From assembly GCF_001598795.1 (NCBI RefSeq), contig NZ_BCZP01000040.1:1-32000 (forward strand): DNA of 32,000 nucleotides, written 5' to 3'. Positions within the stretch are counted from its first letter, which is position 1, and every line of letters begins with the position of its first letter. A program made the translations under genes and the position numbers. Positions 10,803 through 28,256 of the stretch are shown in pieces. A model generated the notes under the pieces. The model searched no databases, was not told where the DNA came from, and saw only the letters and a program-made list of their open reading frames with translations. This DNA comes from Delftia acidovorans NBRC 14950 (GTDB lineage Bacteria > Pseudomonadota > Gammaproteobacteria > Burkholderiales > Burkholderiaceae_C).

Positions 10803-13800
10803 CAGAGGGTCCTTTCGATGTGGCGCTTGCGCTGCAGCAGCGCCTCGCGGCGGCGCTGGGCCGCGTCCATGCCGTCCCGGGCGGCGGCCGCCTGCGCGGC
10901 GCCGTCGCCCTCGCCCTCGCCCTCGCCATCTGCGCCCTGCTCGATGCGCCGCGCCAGGGCCGACACCGTGGGGTGCTTGAAGAGATCGACCAGGGACAGC
11001 TCCCGGCCCAGCCGCGACTCCAGCAGGCCATGCACGCGGATGAGCTGAAGCGAATGCCCGCCCAGGTCGAAGAAGTTGTCGCTGGCGCCTATGCGCTCCA
11101 CGCCCAGCACCTGGGCCCAGAGGGCGGCAATGGTCGCGGCCACGCCGCCCTCGGGCGGCTCGTAGGCCTGGCGCTCCAGGGCCGGCAGGGTGGGCGCCTC
11201 GGGCAGCGCCTTGCGGTCCACCTTGCCGTTGGCGTTCAGGGGCAAGGCATCCAGCACGGTGATGGACGAGGGCAGCATGTAGTCGGGCAGGGCTGCGGCC
11301 AGCGCGCTGCGCAGCGCGGCCATGTCCAGGCACTGTCCCTGCTGCACCGAGACAAAGGCGGCCAGCCGCGCACCGTCGGCCGCCTGGCGGGCGACCACCA
11401 CGGCCTCGCGCACGGCGGGGTGGGCCAGCAGTTGGGCCTCCACCTCGGCCAACTCGATGCGAAAGCCGCGGATCTTCACCTGGTGGTCCACGCGGCCCAG
11501 GTAGTCGATCTGGCCGTCGCCGCGCCAGCGCACCAGGTCGCCCGTGCGGTACAGGCGCTCGCCCGTGCGGCTGGCGGGGTCGGCGACAAAGCGCTCGGCG
11601 CTCAGGCCCGGCCGCCGCCAGTAGCCGCGCGCCAGGCCCACACCGCCCAGGTACAGCTCGCCAGCCACGCCGCGCGGCACCTCGTTGAGCGCGGCATCCA
11701 GCACATGGGTGCGCAGCCCGGCCACGGGGCGGCCTATGGGCACGGACAACGCGCCCTCGTCCCGGCAGTCCCACCAGGTGACCTCGATGGCCGCCTCCGT
11801 GGGGCCGTAGAGATTGAGCAGGCGGGTGCCGGGGAAGGCCTGCAGCACGGCCGCCTGCAATTCGGCGGACAGGGCCTCGCCGCTGCAGATGATGCGCTGC
11901 AGCCCCTGGCAGGTGGCGGCCGCCGGGTGCGCCATGAAGGCCTGCAGCATGGACGGCACGAAGTGGATGGTGCTGACCTGGTGGCGCGCTATCAGCTCGG
12001 CCAGGCGCCGGGGATCGCGGTGGTCGCCGGGGGCGGCCAGCGCCAGGCGTGCGCCGGTGGTCAGCGGCCAGAAGAATTCCCAGAAGGAGATGTCGAAGCC
12101 GAAGGGCGTTTTCTGCAGCACCGTATCGCCCGGGCCCAGCGGCTGATGCATCTGCCCCCACGCCAGGCGGTTGCACAGCGAACGGTGGCGGTTGGCCGCG
12201 CCCTTGGGACGCCCGGTCGAACCCGACGTGTAGATCACATAGACCAGGCTGTCGCCATGCAGGGCAACGGCCGGGTTGTGGGCCGGCATGTCCTGCAGCC
12301 GGGACGCCAGGCCCGGCACATCGACCAGTTGGGCACTGCAGCTGGCCGGCAGGCGGTCACGCACCTGCGGCTGCACCAGCACCAGGGACACGCCGCTGTC
12401 CTCCAGCATGTAGGCGATGCGGTCGGCCGGGTGCTCGGGGTCGATGGGCACATAGGCCGCGCCGGCCTTCATGATGGCCAGCAGCCCCACGACCATCTCG
12501 ATGGAGCGCTCCATGGCAATGCCCACCGGCACGCCGGGCCGCACGCCCGATGCAATCAGGTGATGCGCCAGCCGGTTGGCGCGCGCATTGAGCTCGGCGT
12601 AGCCCAGCGTGGCCTCGCCCAGGCACAGGGCCGGGGCATCGGGGCTGCGCGCCACCTGCTGCTCGAAGCGGCGGTGCACGATGTCGCCGCCGTGCAGGAT
12701 CTGGTCATTGCAGCTCCAGGCCGCCAGTTGCTGGCGTTCGCCGGGACCCAGCAGCGGCACCTCGTCCACGGCACATTGGGGCTGGTGCGCCAGTGCGTCC
12801 AGCATGGCCGCATAGTGGGCGGCCAGGCGCTGCATGCTGCCCGGCGCGAACAGCTCGCGGGCATAGACCAGGCTGATGCCCAGGCTGCCATCGGAGCGCA
12901 CGCGCACTTCCACGGTCAGCTCGAACTGCGCATCTGCGGCCGCCAGCGGCTGGCCGGCCACGGTCCAGCCCGGCACCTGCTGCAGCGCGTGCCAGTCCTC
13001 CACCAGATGATTGAACAGCACCTGGAACAAGGGGCTGTGCGCCAGGCTGCGCTGCGGCTGCAGCGCCTCCACCAGTTGCTCGAACGGCAGATCGTGGTGG
13101 GCCTGCGCGCCCTGCGCCGCCTCGCGGGCCTGCTGCAGCACGTCGGCCAGGCGCATGCGCCCATCGATGCGGTTGCGCAGCACCAGGGTGTTGACGAAAA
13201 AGCCGACCACGCCCTGCAGGTCGGCATGCGCGCGGTTGGCCACGGGCACGCCGACGCGGATGTCCTCCTGCCCCGTGTAGCGGTACAGCAACGCCTGCCA
13301 TCCTGCCAGCAGCAGCGTGAAGAGCGTGTCTCCCTGCTGGCGGGCCTGCGCGCGCAGCGCCTGCAAGGTTGCGCCGGACAGCTCGAAGCTGTGCCGTCCC
13401 GCCCGATAGCGTGCCAGCGCCTGGCGCGGATGGTCGGTAGGCAGGGCCAGCACAGGCTGGGCCTCGCCTGGGGGCACCTGCAACCGTTCCAGCCAGTAGG
13501 CCAGCGAGGCCTGTTGGCCTTGCTGGGCCTGCTGAGCCTGCTCCCGCTGCCAGACGGCGTAGTCCACATACTGCAGCGCCGGGCCGCTGTCCGGGGCGCC
13601 GGCATACAGCGCCGCCAGATCGTCCAGCAGGATCTGCATGGAGGCGCCGTCGGAGACGATGTGGTGCATCACCAGCGCCAGGATGTGCTCATTGGCCTGC
13701 AGCTGCACCAGGGCAGCCCGGGCCAGCGGCCCCTGCTGCAGATCAAAGGGCTGGGCGCACAGCGCCTGCAGCCATTGGGCGGCGTGCTCCTCGCGCTGCG

Positions 13801-16162
13801 CGGGCTTGCCCTGCGCGGCCTGCGCGGCATCCAGCCACTGCAGCTCCAGCCTGCCCTGGGGGTCCAGGCGCTGCTCGACCTCCCCATCGGGCCGGGCGTT
13901 GAATACCGTGCGCAGCGAACCGTGCCGTTCGGCAAGGCCCTGCACGGCTGCACGCAGGGCGCCAGCATCCAGCGGCCCGGTGATGCGCAGGGCGCCCTGC
14001 ACGTGGTAGGCCGTGCTGCGCGTATCCATCTTCCAGAGAAACCATTGGCGCTGCTGGGCCGGCGTCAGCGGCAGGGGCATGGCGCGACGGGCCTCGGCCA
14101 GCGGGGCAATGCGCTGCAGCGCCGTGCCCGGCTGGCGCTGTTGGCACAGCCGGTCGATGTCCTGCGCCTGGTCGCGCAGCCGCGGGTGCTCGAAGACCCG
14201 CCCGGCTGGATACTCCAGGGACCATTGCCGGCAGATGCGCGCGGCCAGCCGCACGGCGGCCAGGGAGTTGCCGCCTTGCGCGAAGAAGTTGGTCTCGCCG
14301 GCCGGCTTGTGCAGGGCATCGCCACCGAGCACCTCGCACCACAGGCCGGCCAGCGTGCTTGTGGTGGGATCTGCCGCACCCGCCTCCTGCGGTGCCTGGC
14401 TGCCGCCGCCCGCGAAGCGGCCCGACTCGAACACGGCCCAGGCATCCAGCGTGCGCGCGGACCAGCCCTGGCGGCAGGCTGCGCGCTGCAGCTTGCCGCT
14501 GGAGGTGCGGGGCAAGGCGCCGGGGTTGAGCAGCACGATCACCCGGGGCGCCTCGCCGCACTGCGCACCCACGGCGGTGCTCAGTGCATCGACCAGGGCC
14601 TGGGCCGGCACCAGCTTTTGCATGCCGAACGAGACTTCGGCAGCAATGCCTATGCCTTCCCGGCCATCGATGTCCACCGCAAAAGCGGCCACGCGCCCCT
14701 TGCGCACGGCTTCGACCTCGGCCTCGACCACGCGCTCGATGTCCTGCGGGTAGAGGTTGTGCCCGCGCACGATGATCAGGTCCTTGATGCGGCCCGCCAC
14801 ATGGACCTGCCCGCCGTGCACGAAGCCCAGGTCGCCCGTGCGCAGCCAGCGCCGGCCTGCATGCTCGACAAAGGCCTGCTGCGTTTGCTGCGGCTTGCCC
14901 CAGTAGCCCTGGCTGATGCTGGGGCCGTGCGCCCAGATCTCGCCCACGCGGCCGGGCTCCAGCACCTGCAGGCTGTGCGGATCGACGATGTTCACCGAAT
15001 GGCCGGGAACGGCGGGGCCGCAGCCCACCAGCGGGGTGGTCTGCGAGGCGCCGGAGCTTTCCTCGGCCCGGCCCTGGCCCAGGGCCTCGGTATCGAAGGA
15101 CGTGATCGTGGCGCCTGCGCCGCAACTGCCGCCGGTGACGAACAGGGTGGCTTCGGCCAGGCCGTAGCAGGCATAGGCCGCGTCGGGCCGCAGGCCGCAG
15201 GCGGCAAAGCGCTGCGCGAAGGCCGTGACGGTGTCGGCACGCACGGGTTCGGCACCCGTGTAGGCCAGCCGCCAGCTCGACAGGTCCAGCTGCGCCAGTT
15301 GCGACGGCTTGATGCGCTCCAGGCACATGCGGTAGGCGAAGTCGGGGCCGCCGCTGATGGTGGCGCGGTGGCGCGAGATCAGCTCCAGCCAGCGCACCGG
15401 GCTTTCCAGAAAGAGGCGCGGCGAGGTCAGCACCAGCGGCAGCCCGCTGTACAGCGGCTGCAGCAGTCCGCCGATCAGGCCCATGTCGTGGTACAGCGGC
15501 GCCCAGGACATGAAGCGGTCGCCCGCGCCGATGTCCATGCGCTGCTGGATGGCGGCCTCGTTGGCGATGAGGTTGCCGTGGCTGACCATCACGCCCTTGG
15601 GCGCCGAGGTGGAGCCCGAGGTGTATTGCAGGAAGGCGATGTCGTCGGCAGCCGGGGCATGGGGCCGCCAGGCGTCGGCATCGGCCAGGTCCACCTGGTC
15701 GGCGGCCACGGCGGCAATGCTGGCAAAGCGCGCATCGGCACCGGGCAGGGCCTGCATCACTTCGGCCGTGCTGATCACGCAGGCCGCATCCGCGTCGCCC
15801 ACGATGCCCAGCAGCCGCTCCAGGTGCTGCACGCGCAGCGATTCCAGCGGCGGCACCGGCACGGCGATCACGCCCGCGTAGAAGCAGGCCAGCATGCTGG
15901 CGGCGTAGTGCTCGTCGTTGTCCATCATCACCAGGGCGCGCGCGCCCACGGGGCACAGCTGCTGCAGCCGGGCGGCCAGCGCGCGCACGCGGCGGTCGAA
16001 CTCGCCATAGCTGTGGCTGCGCTCGACCACGCGGCCGTCCTTCACGGCGGCCACGGTGAGCCAGATGTCGTCGGGCCGCTGCTGCGCCAGCCCCCTCAGG
16101 TGCTCGACCAGGCTGGCCGGCGCCTGGCCTGCTGCCGCGATTGCACTTTGTCCACTCAGCAT
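10802..16162 (-). CDS. NRPS loading/first extension protein: fatty acyl-AMP ligase (FAAL)-like starter, T, C, A, T, then a charged C-terminal tail (DelE-like position).
   Basis: The track ORF 10802..17248(-) is 5'-extended. The ATG at 16162 ([15 protein letters not shown]...) is preceded by a GGGAGG Shine-Dalgarno sequence. FAAL hallmarks: [43 protein letters not shown] and [11 protein letters not shown] domain: [15 protein letters not shown] domain: [12 protein letters not shown] and [15 protein letters not shown] domain: [41 protein letters not shown] and [14 protein letters not shown]. Second T domain: [14 protein letters not shown]. The C-terminal tail is [41 protein letters not shown]. 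Confidence 0.9.
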
Positions 16163-16182
16163 GTCAGCTGCCTCCCGGGTTC

Positions 16183-17172
16183 TCAGAAACGGTCCAGATT
16201 GCTGCGCGGCTCGGCCATGGCGACGATGACCTTGCGCGGCCCCTTGAAGGGCGAGCGGGCATGGGCCACGAGCATGTTGTCCAGCATCAGCACGTCGCCC
16301 TGCTCCCAGGGGAAGCTGACGGTCTCGGCGTCCAGCGCGGCGCGCACCTCGGCGAAGATGTCGTCGCCGATGGTGGAGCCGTCGGCGAAGAAGGTGTTGC
16401 GCGGCAGGTTCTCGATGCCGTAGACCTCCTCCAGCACCTCGCGCTCCTCGGGCTCGCGCGCCGAGATGTGGAACAGGTGGGCCTGGTTGAACCAGACCAT
16501 CTCGCCCGTGACGGGATGGCTTTCCATGGCCTGGCACAGCTGGCGTGTGCGCAGGCCGTCGTCCTCCTTCCACTCCCAGTCCATGCGCGCATGGCGGCAG
16601 AAGGCCTCGACCTCGGCGCGGCTTTCGGTGTTGAAGACCTTCTGCCAGGGCACGTCCATCTCGCCGAAGTTGCGCACGTAGAGGATGCCGGGCTCGAACA
16701 GCTCGCGGATGCGCGCCGGAATGCGGCGGTAGACCGCACGGCTGTCGGCAATCGGCGTCTCGCCGCCCTCGGGCGATGCGGTGACGCAGTGGAACCAGAT
16801 CTTCATGGGCCACTCGCGCGTGTAGGCCTGCTCGTTGTGCAGCGGAATGCTCTGGTGGGCCGGGTATTCGGTGGAGGTGTAGACGCCCGCGCCGCTGGAG
16901 GCCTCGACCGCGCTGCGCGGCGTGGAGGCAAACTCGTACTTGAGCAGCGGGTGGCCGAAGGCCGAGGCGAAGCGCTGGAAGGTCTCCACATCGGGCACGC
17001 CAAAGCCACGCAGCAGCACGCCGCCCGTGGTCAGCAGGGCCTCGTCGATGTCGCGGCGCAGCGGCGGCAGCGCGGCCAGCAGGTCCTGGCCCGGCTGGGC
17101 GGGCGTGATGAGCTGGGGAAGCAGCGAGCCCGCGGGGGCCTTGCGCTCGAAGCGCTGGAGGGTTTCGTTCAT
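16183..17172 (-). CDS. TauD/TfdA-family Fe(II)/2-oxoglutarate dioxygenase (SyrP-like amino-acid beta-hydroxylase).
   Basis: Track ORF 16183..17193(-). The preferred start is the ATG at 17172 ([11 protein letters not shown]), which has an AAGGAA Shine-Dalgarno sequence and an ATGA overlap with the PPTase stop. The sequence resembles TauD-type hydroxylases from NRPS clusters: [17 protein letters not shown] contains an H-x-E/D-like facial-triad segment, and [12 protein letters not shown] lies near the C-terminus. Confidence 0.8.
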
Positions 17173-17858
17173 GTCGATTCCTTGGTGCGCCACGCAAGAG
17201 CTGCCGCGTAGCCCGGCGGCGCTGGCAGCGCCATCGCTTGAAAACCATTCCAGTCGGGGACCGCGCAGGCGATGGCCAGCCGTCCGTCCCCTCCCGGGCT
17301 GATGCCTATGGAGCGCAGGTGGTCGGCCACGCCGATGCCGATGGCCTTGAGCACGGCTTCCTTGCCCACCCAGCGCTGGTAGAAGGCCGCCAGCCGATCA
17401 GGCGCACGGCGCACGCTGGCGCGTTCCTGGTCGGTGCAGACGGCGTCGAGCATGACCTCGGCATCGAGGTCGGGCTTGTGCTGCTCGATGTCCACGCCCA
17501 GATGCAGCACGCCACCGGGATCGGCCAGCGCGATCAGCGCATGCCCGCCCGAATGCGAGACATTGAAGAGCGGTGCCCGCAGCGGGTCCTCGTCGACAAA
17601 GGGCTTGCCGTGGACGCCGACCGCCAGCGGCACATCGGCCGGGCAGCAGCCCAGCCTGCGCCCCAGCAGCCGCCGCGTGGCAGCGCGCGTCTGTGCGAAG
17701 CGCAGCCGGTCGGCGGCCCGCACGAAGCGCGCGGCGCGACCGCGCTCTTCGGGGGTCAGGTGCGGCAGGCTGTCGCTCAGCTCGGCCGACAGGTCCAGGT
17801 CCAGCCTGAAGACCTCGATGCCCTGGCTCATGGCCTCACGCACGGACACGAGCTGCAT
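17169..17858 (-). CDS. Sfp-type 4'-phosphopantetheinyl transferase.
   Basis: The track ORF 17169..18197(-) is 5'-extended. The ATG at 17858 ([21 protein letters not shown]) has an AGGGGGA Shine-Dalgarno sequence. An alternative ATG lies at 17831. PPTase motifs: GKPF, FNVSHSG, LGVDIE and [12 protein letters not shown]. Confidence 0.8.
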
Positions 17859-18579
17859 GGATTTCCCCCTGGAGTGACTGGGACCCGGCCAGGCGCTGCG
17901 CCAGCACGGCCAGCACATCGCCTTCGCGCTGCTTGATGAAGAAATGCCCGCCCTCGAACCAGTCCAGCGTGAAGGCCCCGGCGGCCTCCTGCGACCAGGC
18001 CTGGACGCGGGGCGCCTCGATGTCGTCCTGCCGCCCCGCAAAGACGTGCACCGGCAGCGGCAGGCCCGCAGCGGGCACATGGCCGAAGCTCTCGCAGACG
18101 CGGTAGTCGGACCCCAGCACATCCAGCGTGATGCGCATGAGCTCGGGGCTGGCAAACACCTCTTCGGGCGTGCCGCCCTGCCTGCGCAGATCGGCAATCA
18201 GCGCCGCATCGTCGCCCTTGCCCGCAAAGCGCTCGGGATCGCGGCAGGCCGGTGCCGGGCTGCCCGAGGCAATCAGGGCCAGCGGCAACTCCCTGCCCTG
18301 CTCGCGCAACTGCCGCGCCATGCCGAAGGCCAGCAGCGCGCCCATGCTGTGGCCCAGCAGCGCAAAGCGGCCGCGCATGGCCTGGCGCTGCTCGGCGCAC
18401 AGCAGCGAGACCAGTTGCCCGAAGTCCTCGACCGCAGGCTCGCCCAGCCGGCTGCCCCGCCCCGGCAGCTCCACCGGCGCAATGCGGATCCAGTGGGGCA
18501 GCAGCCTGCGCCAGCGCAGGTACATGGTGGCGCTGGCGCCTGCGCATGGCAGGCACAGCAGGGTCAGCGGCGCGTGCAT
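17836..18579 (-). CDS. Type II (editing) thioesterase, alpha/beta hydrolase.
   Basis: The track ORF 17836..18918(-) is 5'-extended. The ATG at 18579 (MHAPLTLLCLPCAGASATMYLRW) lies 5 nt after the mbtH stop. Nucleophile elbow: GHSMGA. The C-terminal GGHFF motif is typical of TEII enzymes. Confidence 0.85.
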   Translation of the reverse strand: MHAPLTLLCLPCAGASATMYLRWRRLLPHWIRIAPVELPGRGSRLGEPAVEDFGQLVSLLCAEQRQAMRGRFALLGHSMGALLAFGMARQLREQGRELPLALIASGSPAPACRDPERFAGKGDDAALIADLRRQGGTPEEVFASPELMRITLDVLGSDYRVCESFGHVPAAGLPLPVHVFAGRQDDIEAPRVQAWSQEAAGAFTLDWFEGGHFFIKQREGDVLAVLAQRLAGSQSLQGEIHAARVRA

Positions 18580-18584
18580 GCGCG

Positions 18585-18869
18585 TCAGCCCGCTGCGGTT
18601 TCGATAACGGTATCGGTATCGCTTTGCAGCGCGGCGCCGGCTCCCGCCTGCTCCTGCTGCTGCATCCACACGCGCAGCGACTTGGGTCGCATGTCGGTCC
18701 AGGTGGCGTCCACGTAGTCGAGCACGGTTTTCTTGTCGCCCTTCACGCCCTCCACGGCGGTCCAGCCGCCGGGCACGGCCTTCCAGTGCGGCCAGATGGA
18801 ATACTGTTCCTCGTGGTTGACCAGAACGATGAAGGTTTCGTCTTCGCGGTCGAAGCAGCTTGTAGACAT
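18585..18869 (-). CDS. MbtH-like protein (A-domain chaperone).
   Basis: A 94-aa ORF with the canonical MbtH signature: [27 protein letters not shown]...[15 protein letters not shown]. An AAGGA Shine-Dalgarno sequence lies 7 nt upstream of the ATG at 18869. Confidence 0.9.
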
Positions 18870-18886
18870 GCAGGCGTCCTTGTGCA

Positions 18887-18947
18887 GTTGAACATCGGCG
18901 AAGCCAGTGCCGGATCACGGCGATCCGGTACTGCGCCTCTGTTCAAC
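18887..18947 (-). promoter_or_regulatory. Nested inverted repeats in the predicted 5' leader of the mbtH operon.
   Basis: The outer 8-bp arms are GTTGAACA (18887-18894) and TGTTCAAC (18940-18947). They enclose an inner hairpin, CCGGATC-acggc-GATCCGG (18910-18928). Confidence 0.4.
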
Positions 18948-19129: not shown

Positions 19130-21472
19130 ATGACACGCAGAGTCACCATACACACGCCATTGGGCGAGCAGCTGCATTTCCGTGAATTGCGCGGCCAGGA
19201 AAACATCAGCCAGCTCTTCAGCCTCGATGTGGAAATGCTCAGCGAAAGCGAAAGCATCGATCCCAAGGCCCTATTGGGCAAAAACGCCACCATAGAAATA
19301 GAAACCCAGGGCGGTGGCAGGCGCTTCATCGACGGCATCGTCACCCGCTTCGGCATGCAGGGCCAGGACCACCGCCACTATGCCTACAAGGCGCGCCTGA
19401 GCCCCTGGCTGTGGCTGGCCACGCGCAAGAGCGACTTTCGCATCTTCCAGAACCAGACCGTGCCCGACATCATCGAGCAGGTATTGGGCGTCTATGGCCA
19501 TCCCCTGCAAAAGAAACTCACGCGCGCCTATCGCAGCTGGGACTACTGCGTTCAATACAACGAAAGCGATTGCGACTTTGTCTCGCGATTGATGGAGCAC
19601 GAAGGCATTTACTACTTCTTCGAGCATGCCTCGGGCCAGCACACCCTGGTTCTGTGCGACGACATCATTGCCTCGCATGGCGCATTGCCAGGTGGCGAAT
19701 CCATTCCCTTCTATCCCCCGGAAAAAGCCGCCGCAGGCGATCAGGAAAACATCCACGCCTGGCAGCTGGAGCAGGAAATCAAATCGGGCCGCCATTACAG
19801 CGACGACTACGACTTCAAGAAACCCCGGGCCGACCTCACCCACCTGCGGCGCGACCCACCGGGCCACGCCCATGACGGCCATGAAATCTACGAATGGCCG
19901 GGCGGCTACACCCAGCTGAGCGACGGTGAGGACTACATCCGCGTGCGCCTGAAGGAAAGCCTCACGGGCCAAAGCCGGGTGCGGGGCCAGTCCTGCCACC
20001 GGGCGCTGGCCACGGGCTACACCTTCAGCCTCTACAACTACCCGCGCGGCGACCAGAACCAGCAGTACCTGATCACGGGCCTGAGCTACCACCTCAAGGA
20101 GAACCCCCGCGTCAGCGCCATCAGTCCCATCAGTGCCGTGGCCCCTGGCGCCAAGGGCAGCGCCGCGGAGGACGGCTCCTTCCAGCGCTACGAGTTGCAG
20201 GCCCAGCCCACGAGTCTTGCCTACACGCCCGCACGCACCACGCCCAAGCCCCGCACCACGGGCCCGCAGACCGCCGTCGTCGTGGGCCCGGCCGGAGAAG
20301 AAATCTGGACCGACGAATACGGCCGCATCAAGGTGCAGTTCCACTGGGACCGGCTGGGCGGCATGAACGAGAACTCCAGCTGCTGGATCCGCGTGGCCAC
20401 GAACTGGGCGGGCCCGGGGTTCGGGGCCATCTCCATTCCGCGCATAGGGCATGAAGTCGTCGTCGACTTCCTCAACGGCGACCCGGACTCCCCGCTGGTC
20501 ACGGGCTGCGTCTACAACGCGGCCAACATGCCGCCCTGGGCGCTGCCGGCCAACGCCACGCAATCGGGCATCAAGACCAGATCGAGCAAGGGCGGCGCCG
20601 CAGGCGCGGGCATGAAGAACGGCCCGGGCGACGCCAACGCCATCCGCTTCGAGGACAAGGCAGGCGCCGAACAGCTGTGGCTGCACGCGCAAAAGGACCA
20701 GCTCACCGAGGTCGAGAACGACGAGGACAAATGGGTGGGCAACGACCGGCGCAAGACCGTGGACCGTGACGAGACCAACGTCATCCACCGGGACCGCACC
20801 GAGACCGTGGACCGCGACGAGACCATCACCGTGCACAACAACCGCACGGAGCGGGTGGACCACAACGAGAAGGTCAGCATCGGCGACAACCGCAATGAGG
20901 ATGTGGGCCTCAACGAACACATCGCCATCGGCAAGAACCAGCGCATGCGCATAGGCGCCAGCAAGTCCGAGACCGTGGCCCTGAGCTACACGCAGAGCAC
21001 GGGCATCGCCAAGATGATGAACGTCGGCATGGCCTACAGCCGCAATGTCGGCATGGCGATGAACTCCTTCGTCGGGCTCATGAAGGCCAGCCAGGTAGGC
21101 GGAACCCAGTCGCTGAAGGTAGGCCAGACCTATAGCGCAGACATCGGCAAGCGCATGGACCTCAGCGTGGGCGAGCGCCAATCGGTGACCGTGGGCCAGA
21201 TCAGCGTGCACTCCAGCGGAGAGCATCTGGAGCTGGCCTGCGGCAAGGCCAGGATCGTCCTCCAGAGCAATGGCGGCATCTACCTGCAGGGCGTGCACAT
21301 CCAATTGCAGGGCGAAGGCGCCATCAACGGCGACGCCGGCCGCATCCACTGGAACTGCGGCGCCAGCCAGTCCGCACCGTCCGCTCCGCCAGGCTCCTCC
21401 CCATCACCCGCCGCAGCCGACGCGCAGCCGCTGCCCGAGCTTGTGGGAATCAACGGAACCGTCGGGCGCTGA
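19130..21472 (+). CDS. vgrG: Type VI secretion system spike protein VgrG.
   Basis: A 780-aa ORF. The N-terminus MTRRVTIHTPLGEQLHFRELRGQENISQLFSLDVEMLSE is classic VgrG/gp27. The gp5-like beta-helix repeats are DRDETNVIHRDRTETVDRDETITVHNNRTERVDHNEKVSIGDN. The C-terminal tail is rich in Pro, Ser and Ala. Confidence 0.92.
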   Translation: MTRRVTIHTPLGEQLHFRELRGQENISQLFSLDVEMLSESESIDPKALLGKNATIEIETQGGGRRFIDGIVTRFGMQGQDHRHYAYKARLSPWLWLATRKSDFRIFQNQTVPDIIEQVLGVYGHPLQKKLTRAYRSWDYCVQYNESDCDFVSRLMEHEGIYYFFEHASGQHTLVLCDDIIASHGALPGGESIPFYPPEKAAAGDQENIHAWQLEQEIKSGRHYSDDYDFKKPRADLTHLRRDPPGHAHDGHEIYEWPGGYTQLSDGEDYIRVRLKESLTGQSRVRGQSCHRALATGYTFSLYNYPRGDQNQQYLITGLSYHLKENPRVSAISPISAVAPGAKGSAAEDGSFQRYELQAQPTSLAYTPARTTPKPRTTGPQTAVVVGPAGEEIWTDEYGRIKVQFHWDRLGGMNENSSCWIRVATNWAGPGFGAISIPRIGHEVVVDFLNGDPDSPLVTGCVYNAANMPPWALPANATQSGIKTRSSKGGAAGAGMKNGPGDANAIRFEDKAGAEQLWLHAQKDQLTEVENDEDKWVGNDRRKTVDRDETNVIHRDRTETVDRDETITVHNNRTERVDHNEKVSIGDNRNEDVGLNEHIAIGKNQRMRIGASKSETVALSYTQSTGIAKMMNVGMAYSRNVGMAMNSFVGLMKASQVGGTQSLKVGQTYSADIGKRMDLSVGERQSVTVGQISVHSSGEHLELACGKARIVLQSNGGIYLQGVHIQLQGEGAINGDAGRIHWNCGASQSAPSAPPGSSPSPAAADAQPLPELVGINGTVGR

Positions 21473-21496: not shown

Positions 21497-24400
21497 ATGA
21501 ACAAACCCGCAGCCCGCCAGGGCGACATGACCAAGAAGGGCGGCCCTGTCATCCAGGGCTCGTCCACCGTCTTCATCGGCTCCAGTGGCGGCGTCGCCTG
21601 CTCGGCATGCCCGGGCGGACGCGCCGAAGGCAACCCTGTCAACCCCGTGCTGGGCGCCAAGGTCCTGACCGCAGAAGTCGACCTGGCCCTGCCAGGACCG
21701 CTGCCGCTGCACCTCTCGCGCGACTACTCCAGCTACCAGACGCCCACGCCAGCCCCCGTGGGCCTGCTGGGTCCGGGCTGGTGGATGCCCGGCGAACTTG
21801 GCCTGCAGGCAAGCCGCGAGCAGCTCATCGTTCACGACGGCAAGGGCCGCAGCATCTGCTTCGACCCGCTGGCGCCCGGCGAAGTCGCCTACAGCGCCAG
21901 CGAGCACCTTTGGCTGGTACGCGGCGGCAGGGAGCGGCTGCTGGGCGAGGGCCATCCTCAGCGCGTGGCGCATTCCTACCTGGCCCTGCCTTTGGAACTG
22001 CGACAGGGCCGCGACTTCATCCTGGCCACCTCGTCTGCCCTGGGGCCGTGGTGGGTGCTGGGCCCCGAGCGCGGCATGGCGGCTGGCACCGAAGCCGCTG
22101 AATCCACCGATCCGGATACAGCCACCAGCGAAGACCCGCCCGGCCTGGACAAGCGCCATGTGCTGCTGGGCCTTGTTGACCGATTCGGCAACCAGCTGCG
22201 GCTGTTTCGCCACGCCAAGGGCGAGTTCAAGGGACTGGTGAACTTCATTGATGACGGCGCGGGCCGGCGCTATCAGCTGGAGCTGCAGCGCTGCAGTCCT
22301 GCGCAGGAGGCGGCGCACGGCTGGGGGGCGGACGCCGGCATCCGCCTGGTGGCCGTGCATCTGAAGCGCGACCCGGCTTTCGGCAGGCAACCGCCCCCGG
22401 AGCCCCTGGTGCGCTACGAGTACAGCCCGCACGGGGAACTGCAGGCCGTCCATGGGCGCGATGGCCGGATCATGCGGCGCTTTCTCTATGACCCGCGGCA
22501 CCCGGGCCGCATGGTGGGCCACAGCCATGCGGGCCGCCCCACCAGCCGCTACACCTACGACGACCAGGGCCGGGTCATCGAGCAGCACAACCCCGAGGGA
22601 CTGGACTACCGCTTTGACTACAGCGCCCACCAGGAGCCCGGCGCCGACCCTGCCAGCCCGCCCCAGGCCAGCACCCTGGTCACCGACGGCCTGGGACGCC
22701 AGCGCCTCTACCTCTTCACCGGCGAAGGCGGCCTGCGTCGCATTGCCTGCATCATCGAGGCCGATGGCAGCCGGCACAGCTATCGCCATGACAGCGCGGG
22801 CCGGCTGGTCGAGGCCACCGACCCGCTGGGACGGCAGACCACCTACCGGCTGGATACCGCCAGCGGCGACGTCACCCGCATCACCGACAGCGCCGGGCGC
22901 ACAACCGAGCTGCAGTACAACCTGCACGGACAGGTCACCCGCAGCAGCACCCCGGCCGCAGGCAACGAATCCGCTGTCCACCAATGGCGCTACGACCCGC
23001 TGGGACTGCTGCAGGAGCACATCGACCCTCTGGGCCACAGCACCCGCTATCACTACCCGGAGCCCGCCTCCGATGTCCGGCCTGCCGGCGCCGAGCCCTC
23101 CCCCCTGCGCCACTTGCCCATCGCCGTCACCGATGCCAAGGGCGGACGCCAGGAACTCCAATGGGACGCCCGTGGCCTGCTGCTGCGCCGCCAGGACTGC
23201 TCCGGCCGCAGCACACGCCAGGCCCACGACGCCTGGGGAAACCTGGTGGCCATCTACGGCGAGGAAGGCGGCAAGCTGTCGTTCACCTACGATGACGCCG
23301 CCCGGCTGACGGCCAGCATCAACGCGCTGGGCGAGGTTACGCGCTATGGCTACAACGCCAGCGGCGACCTCGAACGCATCGAACACCCTGACGGCCACCT
23401 GGAGCAATTTGCCCTCGATGCGTGGGGCCGCACCATCGGCTACCGCTACGGAGCCCAGGGCAGCTTCTTCCACCAACGCTACCTGCGGGACAAGGCCGGC
23501 CGCCTGGTCGAGCTGCACAACGAAAACGCCAGCATCCATCGCCTTCGCTACGACAGCCAGGACCGGGTGGTCGAAGAGACCGGGTTTGACGCCAGCCCCA
23601 GGCACTACCAATACAACGCGGCCGGCCAGGTCACCGCCAGCAGCGACGCCCTGCACCGGACCCTCCACCACTACGACGAGCGCAATGGCCGGCTGCTGGC
23701 GCGCAGCATCTCGGCCCTGGACACCGAAGGCCAGGATGCGGCCCCCATCGCCACGGAGCACTTCGACTACGACAGCGCGGGCACCCTGACCGGCGCCCAC
23801 CACGTGGTGCACGGCGGCTACCGGCTGGGCACCCTGTTCGAGCGCGACCTGCTGGGCCGCACGCTTGCGGAGACCCAGCAAATGCATGGCCCGCTGGGCG
23901 AGCTGCTGTGGCAGCACCGAAGCCAGCGGCAACTGGACGAGATGGGACAGGTCACGCAAAGCACCATCACCGGACTGCCTCCACTGCAATGGCTGCACTA
24001 CGGCCCGGGCCACCTGCACGGCCTTTTGCTGAGCGGGCGCAACGTGCTGGAGCTGGAACGCGATGCCCGCCACCGGGAGATACAACGGCGCTGCGGAGCC
24101 ACGACCGTGCAGCGCGCCTATGACAGCCTCTCGCGCCTGACCACCACCCGCCTGATCAGGGACACTACCCATCTGCGCGGCCCCGGCGCGGCCAACGCCC
24201 AGGCTGCCGGCGAAACCGCATCAGGCCCCGTGCTGAGCCAACTCAACCGCAGCCATCAATACAACGCACTGGGCCAGTTGTGCGGCACAGGCACGGCGCA
24301 AGGCCCCTGGGCCTACGCCTATGACCCCGCAGGCCGCCTGGTCCAGGCCAAAGGCCCGGGCATGGATCAGCGCTGGCAGTACGACAGCGCCGGCAACCGG

Positions 24401-25897
24401 CTGTTTGCGCACCAGCAGAGCCATCATGCCGCCCGCCAATGGAGCGACGAAGTCCGGCAGAACCTGCATGACCCGGACTTCAACCTCCTGCAGGCAGACC
24501 ACCGCGACCGGGACCGCAGCCACCCGCCCTGTTGGCCCGGCAACCGCATCCTGCAGGACGACCAGCACCAGTACCGCCATGACAGAGCGGGCAACCTGCT
24601 GGAAAAAAGAGGCCCGCAGCAAACCCATCGCTACCAATGGGACCATGCCAATCGCCTCATAGGCCATGCCGTGCAAACGAACGATGCGGGCCATGAGCAC
24701 GAAGGATCCGCCCGCACGGATGAAGCGCCCACCAGCCAATACTTCTACGACGTCTTCGGCCGCCGCATCGCCCGACGAATCCCCCAAAGCGCCACCCCTG
24801 CTGCCAGCCACCCCACCGGTGCCGGTGTGGCAAAGGGTGACGACAACGCAACCCTGGTCTTCTACGGCTGGGACGGCGACCGGCTCACCCTCACCCAATT
24901 GCCGGCCCAGAACCACCGGCCAATGCGGCGCATCCACACCCTGTACGAACCGGACAGCCACGTTCCCCTGCTGCGCGTGGAAACCGCAGGGCTGCCTCCG
25001 GAAGTCAACCTGGCCGACCTGTGGGAGCAAGACAGCGGCCACACCACCGATGCACAGCAGCGAAGCATGCTGGCCGAAGTGCAAAAGCAGATCCTGGCGG
25101 GCCCCAGCCCCCAGATGCGCCAGACCCTGGCCGAATTCGGCCTGGACGCCGACGCGCTGCGGGAGAAACTCCTGCCGCCCGCCGCCGCCATCACCCATAT
25201 CCACCTCTACCACTGCGATCACCTCGGAACGCCCCTTGCCCTGATCGACCCGCTGGGAAAAATCGACTGGCATATCGAACTCGATCCCTGGGGCAACTGC
25301 ATCAGGGAATACAACCCCAACCATCTCCACCAACCTATTCGGATGCAGGGACAGCATCTGGATGAGGAATCGGGGCTGTTCTACAACAGGCATCGGTATT
25401 ACGACCCGGCGTTGGGGAGGTATATCAGCCGTGATCCGATTGGGTTGATGGGGGGCATTAATTTTTATGAATATGCCAACACCAACCCTTGCAATGCATA
25501 TGATCCATTGGGACTGCAAGCCGTAGCTGCGCAGTCCTGTGTATATACCCAATCCACCGGCAATCTCACATGTACAAGAGATGGTATTGAAACAGTAAAT
25601 AATAACGGATATGCCGGAGCGGGGCAGGGGAGAAACAATCCCGACATGCAAGATGTTTTAAATACTGGCCCATTGCCACGTGGAAACTATACGATAGGAG
25701 AAGCATTTAGACACAGGACTGCCGGTATTGCTACAAGACGTCTGACGCCGGCACCCGAAAATGATATGCAAGGACGTGCAGGATTCCTTATTCATGGGGA
25801 CAATGCAACAGGCACAGCCTCTGAGGGATGTATTGTAATGCCTCGCACGATAAGAGATAGTCTTAATGATGGTGACTCTCTGGAGGTAATTAGATGA
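21497..25897 (+). CDS. PAAR-like/Rhs-family polymorphic T6SS toxin with a C-terminal L,D-transpeptidase-like (Tlde1/DUF2778-like) toxin domain.
   Basis: A 1466-aa ORF with a GGGAGGA Shine-Dalgarno sequence 6 nt upstream. The N-terminus is KPAARQGDM...GSSTVFIG...NPVNPVLGAKV...DLALPGPLPLHLSRDYSS. Many YD repeats follow. The Rhs core end is YYDPALGRYISRDPIGLMGGINFYEYANTNPCNAYDPLGL, which carries the PxxxxDPxGL cleavage motif. A 126-aa tip then runs from 25517 to 25894 and contains GPLPRGNYTIG...GRAGFLIHGDNATGTASEGCIVM. Confidence 0.9.
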   Translation: MNKPAARQGDMTKKGGPVIQGSSTVFIGSSGGVACSACPGGRAEGNPVNPVLGAKVLTAEVDLALPGPLPLHLSRDYSSYQTPTPAPVGLLGPGWWMPGELGLQASREQLIVHDGKGRSICFDPLAPGEVAYSASEHLWLVRGGRERLLGEGHPQRVAHSYLALPLELRQGRDFILATSSALGPWWVLGPERGMAAGTEAAESTDPDTATSEDPPGLDKRHVLLGLVDRFGNQLRLFRHAKGEFKGLVNFIDDGAGRRYQLELQRCSPAQEAAHGWGADAGIRLVAVHLKRDPAFGRQPPPEPLVRYEYSPHGELQAVHGRDGRIMRRFLYDPRHPGRMVGHSHAGRPTSRYTYDDQGRVIEQHNPEGLDYRFDYSAHQEPGADPASPPQASTLVTDGLGRQRLYLFTGEGGLRRIACIIEADGSRHSYRHDSAGRLVEATDPLGRQTTYRLDTASGDVTRITDSAGRTTELQYNLHGQVTRSSTPAAGNESAVHQWRYDPLGLLQEHIDPLGHSTRYHYPEPASDVRPAGAEPSPLRHLPIAVTDAKGGRQELQWDARGLLLRRQDCSGRSTRQAHDAWGNLVAIYGEEGGKLSFTYDDAARLTASINALGEVTRYGYNASGDLERIEHPDGHLEQFALDAWGRTIGYRYGAQGSFFHQRYLRDKAGRLVELHNENASIHRLRYDSQDRVVEETGFDASPRHYQYNAAGQVTASSDALHRTLHHYDERNGRLLARSISALDTEGQDAAPIATEHFDYDSAGTLTGAHHVVHGGYRLGTLFERDLLGRTLAETQQMHGPLGELLWQHRSQRQLDEMGQVTQSTITGLPPLQWLHYGPGHLHGLLLSGRNVLELERDARHREIQRRCGATTVQRAYDSLSRLTTTRLIRDTTHLRGPGAANAQAAGETASGPVLSQLNRSHQYNALGQLCGTGTAQGPWAYAYDPAGRLVQAKGPGMDQRWQYDSAGNRLFAHQQSHHAARQWSDEVRQNLHDPDFNLLQADHRDRDRSHPPCWPGNRILQDDQHQYRHDRAGNLLEKRGPQQTHRYQWDHANRLIGHAVQTNDAGHEHEGSARTDEAPTSQYFYDVFGRRIARRIPQSATPAASHPTGAGVAKGDDNATLVFYGWDGDRLTLTQLPAQNHRPMRRIHTLYEPDSHVPLLRVETAGLPPEVNLADLWEQDSGHTTDAQQRSMLAEVQKQILAGPSPQMRQTLAEFGLDADALREKLLPPAAAITHIHLYHCDHLGTPLALIDPLGKIDWHIELDPWGNCIREYNPNHLHQPIRMQGQHLDEESGLFYNRHRYYDPALGRYISRDPIGLMGGINFYEYANTNPCNAYDPLGLQAVAAQSCVYTQSTGNLTCTRDGIETVNNNGYAGAGQGRNNPDMQDVLNTGPLPRGNYTIGEAFRHRTAGIATRRLTPAPENDMQGRAGFLIHGDNATGTASEGCIVMPRTIRDSLNDGDSLEVIR

Positions 25898-26391
25898 GGT
25901 TTTCGAAAAATTTTCTGATTTTAACTACACTTGTCCTACCCTCCATAGCAATGAGTGATGTGGCATGCCTCAAGGAAATACAGACTTCAAAGAAGCAACC
26001 TTCTAACAACGAGGTGAGCACGGCTGCATGGAATTGTCTGGATTCGCTTACAGAAAATATAATATCTGGCGATATTAACGCAATTGATGATGGCGTTAAA
26101 TTATTGCACCACACAGATGCTGGATATACATCCACGATAAAAATATCGTTAGGACTTGCTTTAAAAAAGGAGCCCGAACATGTGATGATTAATCTAAAAG
26201 AAAATCATTCATTATTAATATATGTATGTAGTTTAAATTTTATTGAACCAGAAATTAATTTCGTTAAAGAATATTATCAATCAACGAGAGAAAAATTAGA
26301 AAATATAAAGAGCAGGTATTTAGTTAAAGAAAAGGATCTATGCATCAAAAATATGAACCGTTCTTACAAATTATTTTTCATGGAGAATTAA
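25894..26391 (+). CDS. Putative cognate immunity protein; secreted/periplasmic, no recognisable family.
   Basis: A 165-aa ORF. Its ATG overlaps the rhs TGA in an ATGA arrangement, and a GGAGG Shine-Dalgarno sequence lies 7 nt upstream. The N-terminal signal peptide is MRFSKNFLILTTLVLPSIAMS. G+C content is very low, matching the toxin tip. Its position is typical for Rhs immunity genes. Confidence 0.7.
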   Translation: MRFSKNFLILTTLVLPSIAMSDVACLKEIQTSKKQPSNNEVSTAAWNCLDSLTENIISGDINAIDDGVKLLHHTDAGYTSTIKISLGLALKKEPEHVMINLKENHSLLIYVCSLNFIEPEINFVKEYYQSTREKLENIKSRYLVKEKDLCIKNMNRSYKLFFMEN

Positions 26392-26691
26392 TTTTTATTG
26401 AATTGAGAATTTCAACCATTTGACATAAAATATTACACCCTATACCAAATCAATAGAACAACCTAACTTATCAAATAAAACGATATCTCAAATGAATATA
26501 GAAAAATTTCAGAAGATATAAACATATTCAATCTCGCCGCCAATATCCATTGACAAGTCAATATTGCATTTAGCGCGTGTTGTGCACTTTGAAGTACCCG
26601 CATTGGCTTTGTACGCTGGTTATCGCAAGGCACAGTGCGCAGCCAAGGCTGGTGCCTTGGCAGTCATTGCAACGCTGTGAGCGCCTACCGG

Positions 26692-27216
26692 TCAATTCAA
26701 GTCCAGCAGCGAGCGGTGGACATGGATGGCCTTGCAGGCGTCGGCAATCCTGGCGTTCACCAGGCCCAGCGCACACTCCATGTGCTCGGCGATCTGGCGC
26801 TGGGTGAGGCCCTTGATGCGGTACAGCTCGAAGGTCTCGCGGGTCTTGGGCGGCACCTCGTCCAGGGCCTGGTCGATCAGGCGTATGGCCTGGGACTCGA
26901 ACAAAAGGCGCTCGGGCGAGCGGCTGTCCGGTATCTCCAGCGTCTCCACATCCACGCCGTGGGTGCGGTAGCTGTTCTCGCGCTCCTGGCGGCGCAGGTA
27001 GTCCAGCGCCATGTTGCAGACGGCGCGCGTCCAGTAGGCGGCGGGCCTGGCGATCTCGGCATCGCTGCGCATCTCGGCAACGCGCAGATAGGTGTCCTGC
27101 ACGGCGTCGTCGGCCAGTTCGGGATTCCTGAGAATTCTTCGCGCGACCCTCACCAACTGTCCACGCGAAGCAATGAAAACCTCTTCCAGCGAAGAATGTG
27201 TGTGATTCAAGGACAC
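26692..27216 (-). CDS. ECF sigma-70 family factor, iron-starvation (PvdS/FecI-like) type.
   Basis: A 174-aa ORF with a GTG start preceded by a GAGGAA Shine-Dalgarno sequence. The region 2 motif is DDAVQDTYLRV...AYWTRAVCNMALDYLRRQ. The region 4 motif is LDEVPPKTRETFELYRIKGLTQRQIAEHMECALGLVNARI. The overall pattern resembles PvdS as recalled from memory. Confidence 0.85.
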   Translation of the reverse strand: MSLNHTHSSLEEVFIASRGQLVRVARRILRNPELADDAVQDTYLRVAEMRSDAEIARPAAYWTRAVCNMALDYLRRQERENSYRTHGVDVETLEIPDSRSPERLLFESQAIRLIDQALDEVPPKTRETFELYRIKGLTQRQIAEHMECALGLVNARIADACKAIHVHRSLLDLN

Positions 27217-27945: not shown

Positions 27946-28022
27946 TGGCGGAGTGGACGGGACTCGAACCCGCGACCCCCGGCGTGACAGGCCGGTATTC
28001 TAACCAACTGAACTACCACTCC
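27946..28022 (-). tRNA. tRNA-Asp (anticodon GTC).
   Basis: The reverse complement is GGAGTGGTAGTTCAGTTGGTTAGAATACCGGCCTGTCACGCCGGGGGTCGCGGGTTCGAGTCCCGTCCACTCCGCCA. It has a cloverleaf, the anticodon loop CTGTCAC and an encoded CCA end. It is near-identical in pattern to enterobacterial tRNA-Asp. Confidence 0.95.
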
Positions 28023-28066
28023 TGGCAGACAGCTTTTGCGCTCTTTCGAGCCAAGTGCTGCAAACT

Positions 28067-28142
28067 TGGCGACCCTACGGGGATTCGAACCCCGGTACTC
28101 ACCGTGAAAGGGTGATGTCCTAGGCCTCTAGACGATAGGGTC
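28067..28142 (-). tRNA. tRNA-Glu (anticodon TTC).
   Basis: The reverse complement is GACCCTATCGTCTAGAGGCCTAGGACATCACCCTTTCACGGTGAGTACCGGGGTTCGAATCCCCGTAGGGTCGCCA. The anticodon loop is CTTTCAC. Confidence 0.95.
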
Positions 28143-28180
28143 AATCCTAGAACTTGCGTAAATACTCAAGTCTCAATTTT

Positions 28181-28256
<76 letters not shown>

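Follow-up and report, generated by a model that had tools for sequence, protein, structure and literature searches.

A low-G+C Rhs cassette of Delftia acidovorans with a Tlde1-type tip and a candidate exported immunity protein

The best-described relative of the toxin considered here is Tlde1a of Salmonella Typhimurium, which together with its immunity protein Tldi1a (Tae5/Tai5) belongs to the Salmonella pathogenicity island 6 (SPI-6) type VI secretion system (T6SS) and carries the Pfam domain PF10908 (Tlde1/DUF2778) (Sibinelli-Sousa et al., 2020; Lorente Cobo et al., 2022, PMC9638812). Its catalytic residues are H121 and C131, and it is the only member of the family for which periplasmic toxicity and L,D-carboxypeptidase and D-amino-acid exchange activity on tetrapeptide stems are known. 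Rhs proteins can also end in a DUF2778 domain, as does WP_052983304.1 of Shigella sonnei (Tae7/Tlde1c family), and Rhs-DUF2778 fusions occur in 11% of the genomes with a Tae7 member (bioRxiv 10.1101/2020.02.18.954545). The same survey describes a much greater diversity among the immunity proteins than among the toxins: Tai5 is DUF2195, and no domain is annotated for Tai6 and Tai7; Sec signals are present in Tai5 and Tai6 and transmembrane segments in Tai7, and many DUF2778 family members adjoin orphan Hcp genes (bioRxiv 10.1101/2020.02.18.954545). Here we describe a 32,000-nucleotide stretch of the genome of Delftia acidovorans NBRC 14950 (the whole of which we call the window), in which a 1466-residue Rhs protein ends in a 126-residue tip and is followed by the gene for a 165-residue protein with an apparent export signal.

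In our view this region is most probably a C-terminal cassette, exchangeable and composed of a Tlde1 tip and its immunity partner, that belongs to an Rhs effector delivered by a T6SS. The Rhs protein would ride on VgrG via its PAAR-like N-terminus and be delivered by a T6SS, and the Rhs shell would cleave itself after the sequence DPLGL to free the tip. In the periplasm of the target cell the tip would act on the tetrapeptide stems of peptidoglycan through Cys1445 and His1433; by homology with Salmonella Tlde1a, the expected activity would be that of an L,D-carboxypeptidase and/or D-amino-acid exchange enzyme, which would weaken the wall. The Sec-exported 165-residue protein would bind and block the tip in the periplasm of the producer. 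A stretch of about 200 nucleotides of Rhs core at the 5' end of the cassette would serve as a homology handle for tip exchange, and sister strains keep the same Tlde1 and immunity genes, without a promoter, as an orphan downstream of an Rhs gene that has another tip.

The window pair resembles Tlde1a/Tldi1a in being bicistronic with an immunity candidate that is predicted to be Sec-exported, and in its putative link to a T6SS, and the tip has PF10908, an L,D-transpeptidase-like fold and a His...Ser-x-Gly-Cys centre in common with Tlde1a. Tlde1a, however, is a free-standing cargo of the Hcp type, has a capping subdomain and bears the motif SHGC, whereas the window tip is fused to Rhs, has SEGC and is without detectable sequence similarity to the Tlde1a chain in the PDB; Tldi1a is DUF2195, whereas the 165-residue protein is all-alpha, unrelated to Tldi1a and unmatched in Pfam. 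Tai7 immunity proteins are transmembrane, unlike the 165-residue protein with its cleavable-looking signal peptide. Tai6/Tldi1b (for example STM14_0332, WP_077921582.1) fits the 165-residue protein when compared by description only, in its Sec signal, its lack of an annotated domain and its place beside Hcp-linked DUF2778 genes of Enterobacterales. A preliminary description of the window had suggested that a Tlde1-like domain delivered by Rhs and paired with a new immunity protein would make a new toxin combination. Rhs-DUF2778 fusions were already reported in 2020 (bioRxiv 10.1101/2020.02.18.954545), and Rhs-delivered Tlde1 is therefore not new; the window contains a clear example of this known effector type with a family-typical immunity partner, which enlarges the known range of toxins only slightly.

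The Rhs carrier and its tip

The Rhs protein has the layout of a polymorphic toxin, with repeats, core and DPLGL motif followed by a variable tip and a downstream immunity candidate. Pfam matches were obtained to RHS_repeat (6.7e-53, 12 stretches), DUF6531 (2.3e-16) and RHS (6.5e-12), and residues 1263-1340 match the NCBIfam model Rhs_assc_core (TIGR03696, 6.4e-25). On the basis of the Rhs family, cleavage is predicted after Leu1340, at the end of this match.

The tip matches Pfam PF10908 (Tlde1_dom) with E=1.6e-14 and 54.8 bits, against a cut-off of 30.1, over tip residues 29-112 (25601-25852); its score on Pfam YkuD is slightly under the cut-off (21.1 against 23.4 bits), and the NCBIfam search gave no match. 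A search of a word-indexed database returned 457 homologs at E<=1e-3, with PF10908 present in all 120 of the matches listed. These homologs are mostly free proteins of about 120 residues, and some begin with the last part of an Rhs core, among them a Cupriavidus protein annotated by NCBI. The AlphaFold2 (AF2) model of the tip, made from a 121-sequence alignment, is highly confident, with a predicted local distance difference test score (pLDDT) of 94.7. A Foldseek search of the PDB with this model gave 26 matches at E<=1e-3, all of them L,D-transpeptidases with a probability of 1.0 and query TM-scores (TMq) of 0.51-0.65, headed by LdtMt2, LdtMt1, M. abscessus Ldt2 and B. subtilis YkuD. Judged by family profile and predicted structure, the tip is a Tlde1/DUF2778 domain, a compact relative of the YkuD L,D-transpeptidases; the kinship with both families that the preliminary description had suspected for residues 1341-1466 is upheld by the Pfam match above cut-off, the confident model and the Foldseek matches.

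The predicted catalytic residues are His1433 (25793-25795) and Cys1445 (25829-25831), the latter in the motif A-S-E-G-C. Across 121 homologs the tip residues H93, S102, G104 and C105 are invariant, and the His-Cys spacing has the shortness characteristic of DUF2778, with 12 residues in the tip compared with 10 in Tlde1a and 14-17 or more in YkuD. The second His of the (S/T)-H-G-C motif, H129 in Tlde1a, is not matched in the tip, which has Glu at this position. This substitution had been presented as a peculiarity of the window tip. The residue before Gly-Cys is nevertheless Glu in 98 of the 121 homologs (Gln or Asn in 16, His in 3), and the alignment published for the Tlde1 family contains 'SEGCI' 115 times; Glu is thus a trait of the subfamily and not a defect of the copy in the window, and the second His does not define the whole Tlde1 family. 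In Tlde1a, His129 is not the catalytic base but is proposed to bind the carboxylate of D-Ala4, and the H129A mutant keeps D-amino-acid exchange while losing most crosslinking and part of its carboxypeptidase activity.

The behavior of this mutant bears on an alternative in which the anatomy of the cassette is unchanged and the tip is a Tlde1-fold enzyme with a chemistry or substrate unlike that of Tlde1a, such as another peptidoglycan bond or acceptor. A functional difference between the Glu branch and Tlde1a is possible, and the alternative draws on the replacement of the D-Ala4-orienting His across the subfamily, on the selective loss of activities in H129A and on the reported differences between Tlde1 subfamilies in their capping subdomain (PMC9638812). 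It also draws on the distance between the proteins: phmmer searches of the PDB sequences with the tip gave a chance match only, and a profile of the 121 tip homologs found no Tlde1a among them and a weak match to ErfK/YbiS at E=0.42. We nevertheless regard such a difference as unlikely, since the catalytic His, Ser and Cys are invariant, the fold matches that of L,D-transpeptidases, and the exported partner still indicates a periplasmic target, most simply peptidoglycan. With Tlde1a the only characterised member of the family, the Glu branch is of modest interest.

The 165-residue protein and its pairing with Tlde1 genes

The start codon of the 165-residue open reading frame (ORF) overlaps the stop codon of the tip as ATGA, with a GGAGG Shine-Dalgarno sequence seven nucleotides upstream at 25882-25886. 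By inspection only, the first residues of the protein, MRFSKNFLILTTLVLPSIAMS, are arranged in the n, h and c regions of a Sec signal, and a hydrophobic N-terminal segment is found in every member of the family to which the protein belongs, in agreement with the signal peptide noted in the preliminary description. The AF2 model has a pLDDT of 86.4 (about 51 over residues 1-20) and forms an eight-helix bundle or solenoid, for which neither the PDB nor BFVD contained a significant structural match.

Pfam and NCBIfam searches assigned the 165-residue protein to no family, the only Pfam match at E<=1 being a chance one to BBE, and a word-indexed search returned two close copies only, at 95% and 84% identity. 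The status of an orphan suggested by the latter search was rejected when a phmmer search of 1.84 billion cluster representatives revealed a family, with 36 proteins at E<1e-3 and five at <1e-10. The 36-member alignment (A3) shows a signal or lipoprotein-like N-terminus followed by a domain of about 150 residues with the motifs GD..W, TDAG, ALPxNPxxVL and VCxxPFIEP and a C-terminal Cys; G59 and C112 are invariant, and D75, A76, G77, P94 and C150 are conserved in at least 90% of members. In the window protein these motifs have diverged (HHTDAG, ALKKEP, VCSLNFIEPE), and there are two extra Cys residues, common also to its nearest relatives. No relevant Pfam family was found among the 36 members, none of which matched DUF2195, and the family profile matched only de novo designed helical repeats among the PDB sequences. 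The 165-residue protein is a divergent member of a sparse, unnamed family of exported all-alpha proteins. The earlier view that it could not be assigned to a family therefore stands as far as Pfam, NCBIfam and the PDB are concerned, but has to be amended in that a family of 36 representatives exists, although without a database name.

A tblastn search of plasmids gave a match on pNK81 of Caballeronia sp. NK8 (NZ_AP024325.1), where the gene order is TssB-TssC-Tlde1 (120 residues)-family member (170 residues)-Hcp-TssJ-TssK. This Tlde1 protein matches PF10908 with 57 bits, shares 42% identity with the tip and contains the motif ASHGC; its 170-residue partner is ATGA-coupled to it, is 30% identical to the 165-residue protein and scores 144 bits on the hidden Markov model (HMM) of the family. 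Metagenomes were scanned with a pattern taken from the immunity family only, VC[SG]xPF[IF]E[PA][EDT], Tlde1 genes being called afterwards with the HMM of the tip family. The scan yielded 13 confirmed loci (L026-L038), and in all 12 that could be evaluated the immunity gene begins where a Tlde1 gene ends, the thirteenth (L029) having only about 200 nucleotides upstream. These 12 paired loci are not all independent, as six are Burkholderiaceae T6SS clusters similar to one another and to that of Caballeronia; L036-L038 are Enterobacterales-like Hcp-Tlde1-immunity islands, and some of the paired loci have no T6SS genes nearby. The pair is found in at least four unrelated types of context: the Rhs cassette, a T6SS core cluster, Hcp islands and a phage-like contig. 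The Caballeronia and metagenome loci have the same toxin subfamily, partner family, ATGA-type coupling and gene order as the window; they differ in that their toxin is a free protein of about 120-135 residues beside Hcp, whereas that of the window is the tip of an Rhs cage beside VgrG, and the window immunity protein is, relative to those partners, a divergent, AT-rich member with the two extra Cys residues.

Given this regular placement directly after Tlde1 genes, the gene neighborhoods mark the 165-residue family as the usual partner of this Tlde1 subfamily, and the 165-residue gene very probably encodes the exported immunity protein of the tip. The ATGA coupling, the adjacency in 12 of 12 loci and the Caballeronia plasmid thus strengthen the immunity role given to this gene in the preliminary description. 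They do not bear out the description of the protein as a new immunity partner, since the family sits directly downstream of Tlde1 genes in T6SS and Hcp islands elsewhere. As a conserved, recognisable and unannotated group, the partners of SEGC-type Tlde1 could be defined as a family that would flag Tlde1 immunity and orphan immunity genes. It is a tentative and rather doubtful idea that the SEGC branch may differ from Tlde1a in its peptidoglycan specificity and that the immunity family may represent a new all-alpha periplasmic inhibitor fold unrelated to any solved structure.

An improbable alternative holds that the 165-residue protein is an accessory or unrelated periplasmic protein that travels with Tlde1 genes and confers no immunity. 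No known immunity domain or fold was found in it, and distant members of the family stand among housekeeping genes with no Tlde1 (L010 6001-6531, L011 6001-6495, L012 5118-6591), for example as two copies in tandem in L012 and as one copy in Oxalobacter vibrioformis. Orphan immunity genes that lack a toxin are already known, however (bioRxiv 10.1101/2020.02.18.954545), and these genes are probably of that kind. An immunity protein is favored by the strict position directly 3' of Tlde1, often with overlapping stop codon, in unrelated contexts, by an export signal that suits a periplasmic toxin, by the retention of the gene with an orphan tip under purifying selection (see below), and by its retention beside a toxin whose catalytic Cys has become Gly. 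The last case is found at L037 (2456-3375), where an Hcp-linked Tlde1 homolog reads ASEGG and is followed by an intact immunity-family gene; here the toxin may have been inactivated while immunity was kept.

A single immunity family for all Rhs-Tlde1 cassettes was considered and rejected, as the neighbors of the tips in L018, L019 and L020 fail the family HMM. L019 is an orphan of Cupriavidus sp. USMAA2-4 (P0076) in which Tlde1 follows an Rhs DPxGL motif behind a full Rhs gene, with ASEGC and 52% identity to the window tip; the proteins downstream in L019 (173 residues) and L018 (206 residues) lie outside the 165-residue family.

Other loci contain members of the two families in further arrangements. 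The phage-like contig L013 (6001-8017; Bbp16, GP7 and Bbp19 domains) has Tlde1 and a partial immunity-family gene on one strand, with a second, full immunity-family gene nearby. Closer relatives of the 165-residue protein are found among polymorphic toxins in L015 and L016. In L015 such a relative precedes an Ntox16 orphan. In L016 (3-4212) an Rhs tip that passes the Pfam YkuD cut-off (24.3 against 23.4 bits) is followed by six small genes, most of whose products have signal-peptide-like N-termini; the fourth is a member of the 165-residue family and another resembles the immunity proteins of L018 and L020, and the array may be a multi-immunity island against L,D-transpeptidase-like toxins. 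In the short contig L017 (1-1049) frameshifts affect both a Tlde1 tip and an immunity gene with 59% identity to that of the window, and the two are followed by an rhs core fragment resembling window Rhs residues ~1190-1250, so that the cassette also occurs upstream of another rhs fragment.

Composition and exchange of the cassette

In a 200-nucleotide sliding window the G+C content falls from 0.66-0.72 upstream to 0.50 at 25300-25499, reaches a minimum of 0.22 at 26200-26399 and is above 0.6 again by 26600, and a two-segment likelihood fit places the change points at ~25258 and ~26573. The 1.3 kb island between them (25259-26572) has 39.3% G+C compared with 67.8% for the whole window, and its G+C at third codon positions (GC3) is 0.3-0.4, down from 0.8-0.9. 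It contains the last ~85 codons of the Rhs core, the tip, the coupled 165-residue ORF and an AT-rich spacer. The abrupt drop at 25300 in the preliminary description is real and large, but it is stepwise and sets in about 40 nucleotides earlier; the placement of the break inside the Rhs core, the continuation of low G+C through the tip, the 165-residue ORF and the DNA beyond, the map of ORFs and all of the quoted peptide strings agree with our analysis. The cassette is foreign AT-rich DNA. Within the spacer and the island there is no terminator-like site, promoter-like sites do not exceed the expectation from shuffled sequence, and the repeats present are short and unremarkable. A segment of 149 bp at 26415-26563 (28% G+C), in which likewise neither a repeat nor a terminator nor a significant promoter signal was found, occurs in the window and in L001-L003 and is replaced by about 7 bp in L004-L009.

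The fused arrangement of the window recurs with 98% identity in three metagenome contigs (L001-L003). A lineage diverged by about 5% (L004-L006, L008) has a main Rhs gene with 95% nucleotide identity and a different, 152-residue tip with no Pfam match. This gene is followed by that of a 187-residue exported protein, which does not match the 165-residue family HMM, and then by a 5'-truncated rhs fragment that begins at the equivalent of 25363 and leads into the Tlde1 tip, the 165-residue gene and the same extracytoplasmic function (ECF) sigma-factor gene, a conserved gene that bounds the array of rhs tips on the right in all Delftia loci. In D. acidovorans MMO-42, the closest species-representative genome (94.6% nucleotide identity over VgrG and Rhs up to 25463), the Rhs gene has this other tip, a further orphan of that tip is present, and only a core remnant equivalent to 25128-25428 is left at the Tlde1 site, abutting the sigma gene. 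The same cassette is thus an orphan behind an Rhs with a different tip in sister strains, and the tip has been exchanged at this locus. These sister-locus states and the G+C change point confirm the earlier view of the low-G+C block as a recombined Rhs tip cassette with its boundary inside the core.

Up to 25457, the first part of the cassette shares 96-98% identity with the main Rhs genes of L004 and L021, which bear another tip, and the window follows the main-gene alleles at all five sites that discriminate these from the orphan (25371, 25404, 25418, 25424 and 25457). The pattern of single-nucleotide polymorphisms (SNPs) switches between 25457 and 25459, and sequence of the Tlde1-type cassette runs from 25459. 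In orphan cassettes of a Comamonas metagenome-assembled genome the core pieces start at the equivalents of 25262 and 25267, at the G+C change point, and orphan arrays are also present in D. acidovorans L021 and Comamonas L022. Since the stretch also occurs in Rhs genes with a different tip, it is common to these cassettes and not specific to Tlde1, and the ~200 nucleotides of low-G+C core are probably, from these comparisons, a recombination or homology handle for tip exchange. The boundary inside the core given in the preliminary description is therefore retained, with the qualification that ~25258-25457 is common to Rhs genes with other tips and that the Tlde1-specific part starts at ~25459.

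The other tip, of about 150 residues ('QKISSGRNRTG...PWQSAAQNFSPHDYTQYC...'), is found in L004 (3964-5032), L021 (6758-7852) and L022 (5587-8351), with several orphan copies. It has no Pfam match, nor does the following signal-peptide protein of 185-198 residues have any match, and from their sequences the two look like an unannotated Rhs toxin-immunity pair that probably acts in the periplasm.

Recombination between main and orphan rhs genes was shown experimentally in Salmonella Typhimurium LT2 (Koskiniemi et al., 2014, PMC3967940). As in LT2, an orphan tip-immunity module lying downstream from the main rhs gene shares a short core stretch with it, and a fused form exists; unlike in the laboratory evolution of LT2, both Delftia states are seen in natural, metagenome-derived lineages diverged by about 5%. 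The fused and orphan states and their shared low-G+C handle make this locus a clean case for studying Rhs tip exchange. Comparison of the fused with the orphan copies gives a ratio of non-synonymous to synonymous substitution rates (dN/dS) of 0.13 in the tip and 0.23 in the immunity gene, which indicates that both are maintained by selection. A reading in which the tip has decayed to an inactive remnant, its catalytic motif spoiled by the replacement of His by Glu, in a block of dead horizontally acquired DNA, is very improbable: its motif departs from the canonical (S/T)HGC and the same cassette is a non-expressed orphan in sister strains, but Glu is the norm in intact homologs and in the published alignment, and the tip is encoded without interruption in the reading frame of a complete Rhs gene, is under purifying selection and has a highly confident model.

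Several points count against an exchangeable, T6SS-delivered Rhs-Tlde1 cassette as we have described it. The first 21 residues of the Rhs protein score only 15.9 bits on PAAR_motif, for which the cut-off is 27, and the window contains no T6SS core genes. The activity of the tip is extrapolated from Tlde1a, which is too distant for the subfamily profile to detect in the PDB, and with Glu at the equivalent of His129 its substrate handling may differ. The toxin-less relatives of the 165-residue protein suggest that the family need not always act as immunity, and the immunity genes beside the nearest Rhs-linked Tlde1 relatives, in L018 and L019, are of other families. Divergence of the orphan in the handle (~5%) is similar to that elsewhere (~8.6%), and the direction of exchange, by which the other tip was either lost or inserted, is therefore not decidable from SNPs; the locus fits recombination between main and orphan genes, and would also fit an incoming cassette that displaced the Tlde1 tip.

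Genes and features around the cassette

The coordinates of the cassette and its neighbors are collected in Table 1. Further downstream the window contains a P-II-like/RND (resistance-nodulation-division) pair.

Table 1. Features of the Rhs locus in the window, with their position, strand, composition and the evidence for them.
Feature	Coordinates	Strand	G+C	Evidence or remarks
VgrG spike protein gene	19130..21472	+		Pfam Phage_GPD 1.3e-109, Gp5_trimer_C, Phage_base_V; ends 24 nt before the Rhs gene
Rhs effector gene	21497..25897	+		1466 aa; PAAR-like N-terminus, DUF6531, YD/RHS repeats, RHS core, Tlde1 tip
Rhs gene 5' of 25300			68.5%
Low-G+C 'handle' (probable)	25258..25458	+		Last ~65 core codons before tip-specific sequence; G+C change point, identity to other-tip Rhs
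End of Rhs core	25300-25516		50.2%
PxxxxDPxGL autoproteolysis motif (predicted)	25484..25516	+		NPCNAYDPLGL, read from sequence; at end of TIGR03696 match
126-aa tip and stop codon	25517..25897	+	47.2%	PF10908 Tlde1_dom match; coding part 25517-25894
Exported immunity candidate, 165 aa	25894..26391	+	32.1%	Signal peptide ~25894-25953, then all-alpha domain with four Cys
AT-rich spacer closing the cassette	26392..26572	.	27%	26.8% over 26392-26570
ECF sigma-factor gene	26692..27216	-		Pfam Sigma70_r2/r4_2; conserved in L001, L004, L007, L021

Directly upstream of the vgrG-rhs island, on the minus strand at 6114-18915, lie a polyketide synthase module (ketosynthase, acyltransferase, ketoreductase and acyl carrier protein; KS-AT-KR-ACP) and a nonribosomal peptide synthetase module (condensation, adenylation and thiolation; C-A-T), and the same stretch holds a thioesterase and a phosphopantetheinyl transferase. 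Genes for tRNA-Asp, tRNA-Glu and tRNA-Ala are located on the minus strand at 27946-28256, about 0.7 kb past the ECF sigma-factor gene and near the variable tip array.

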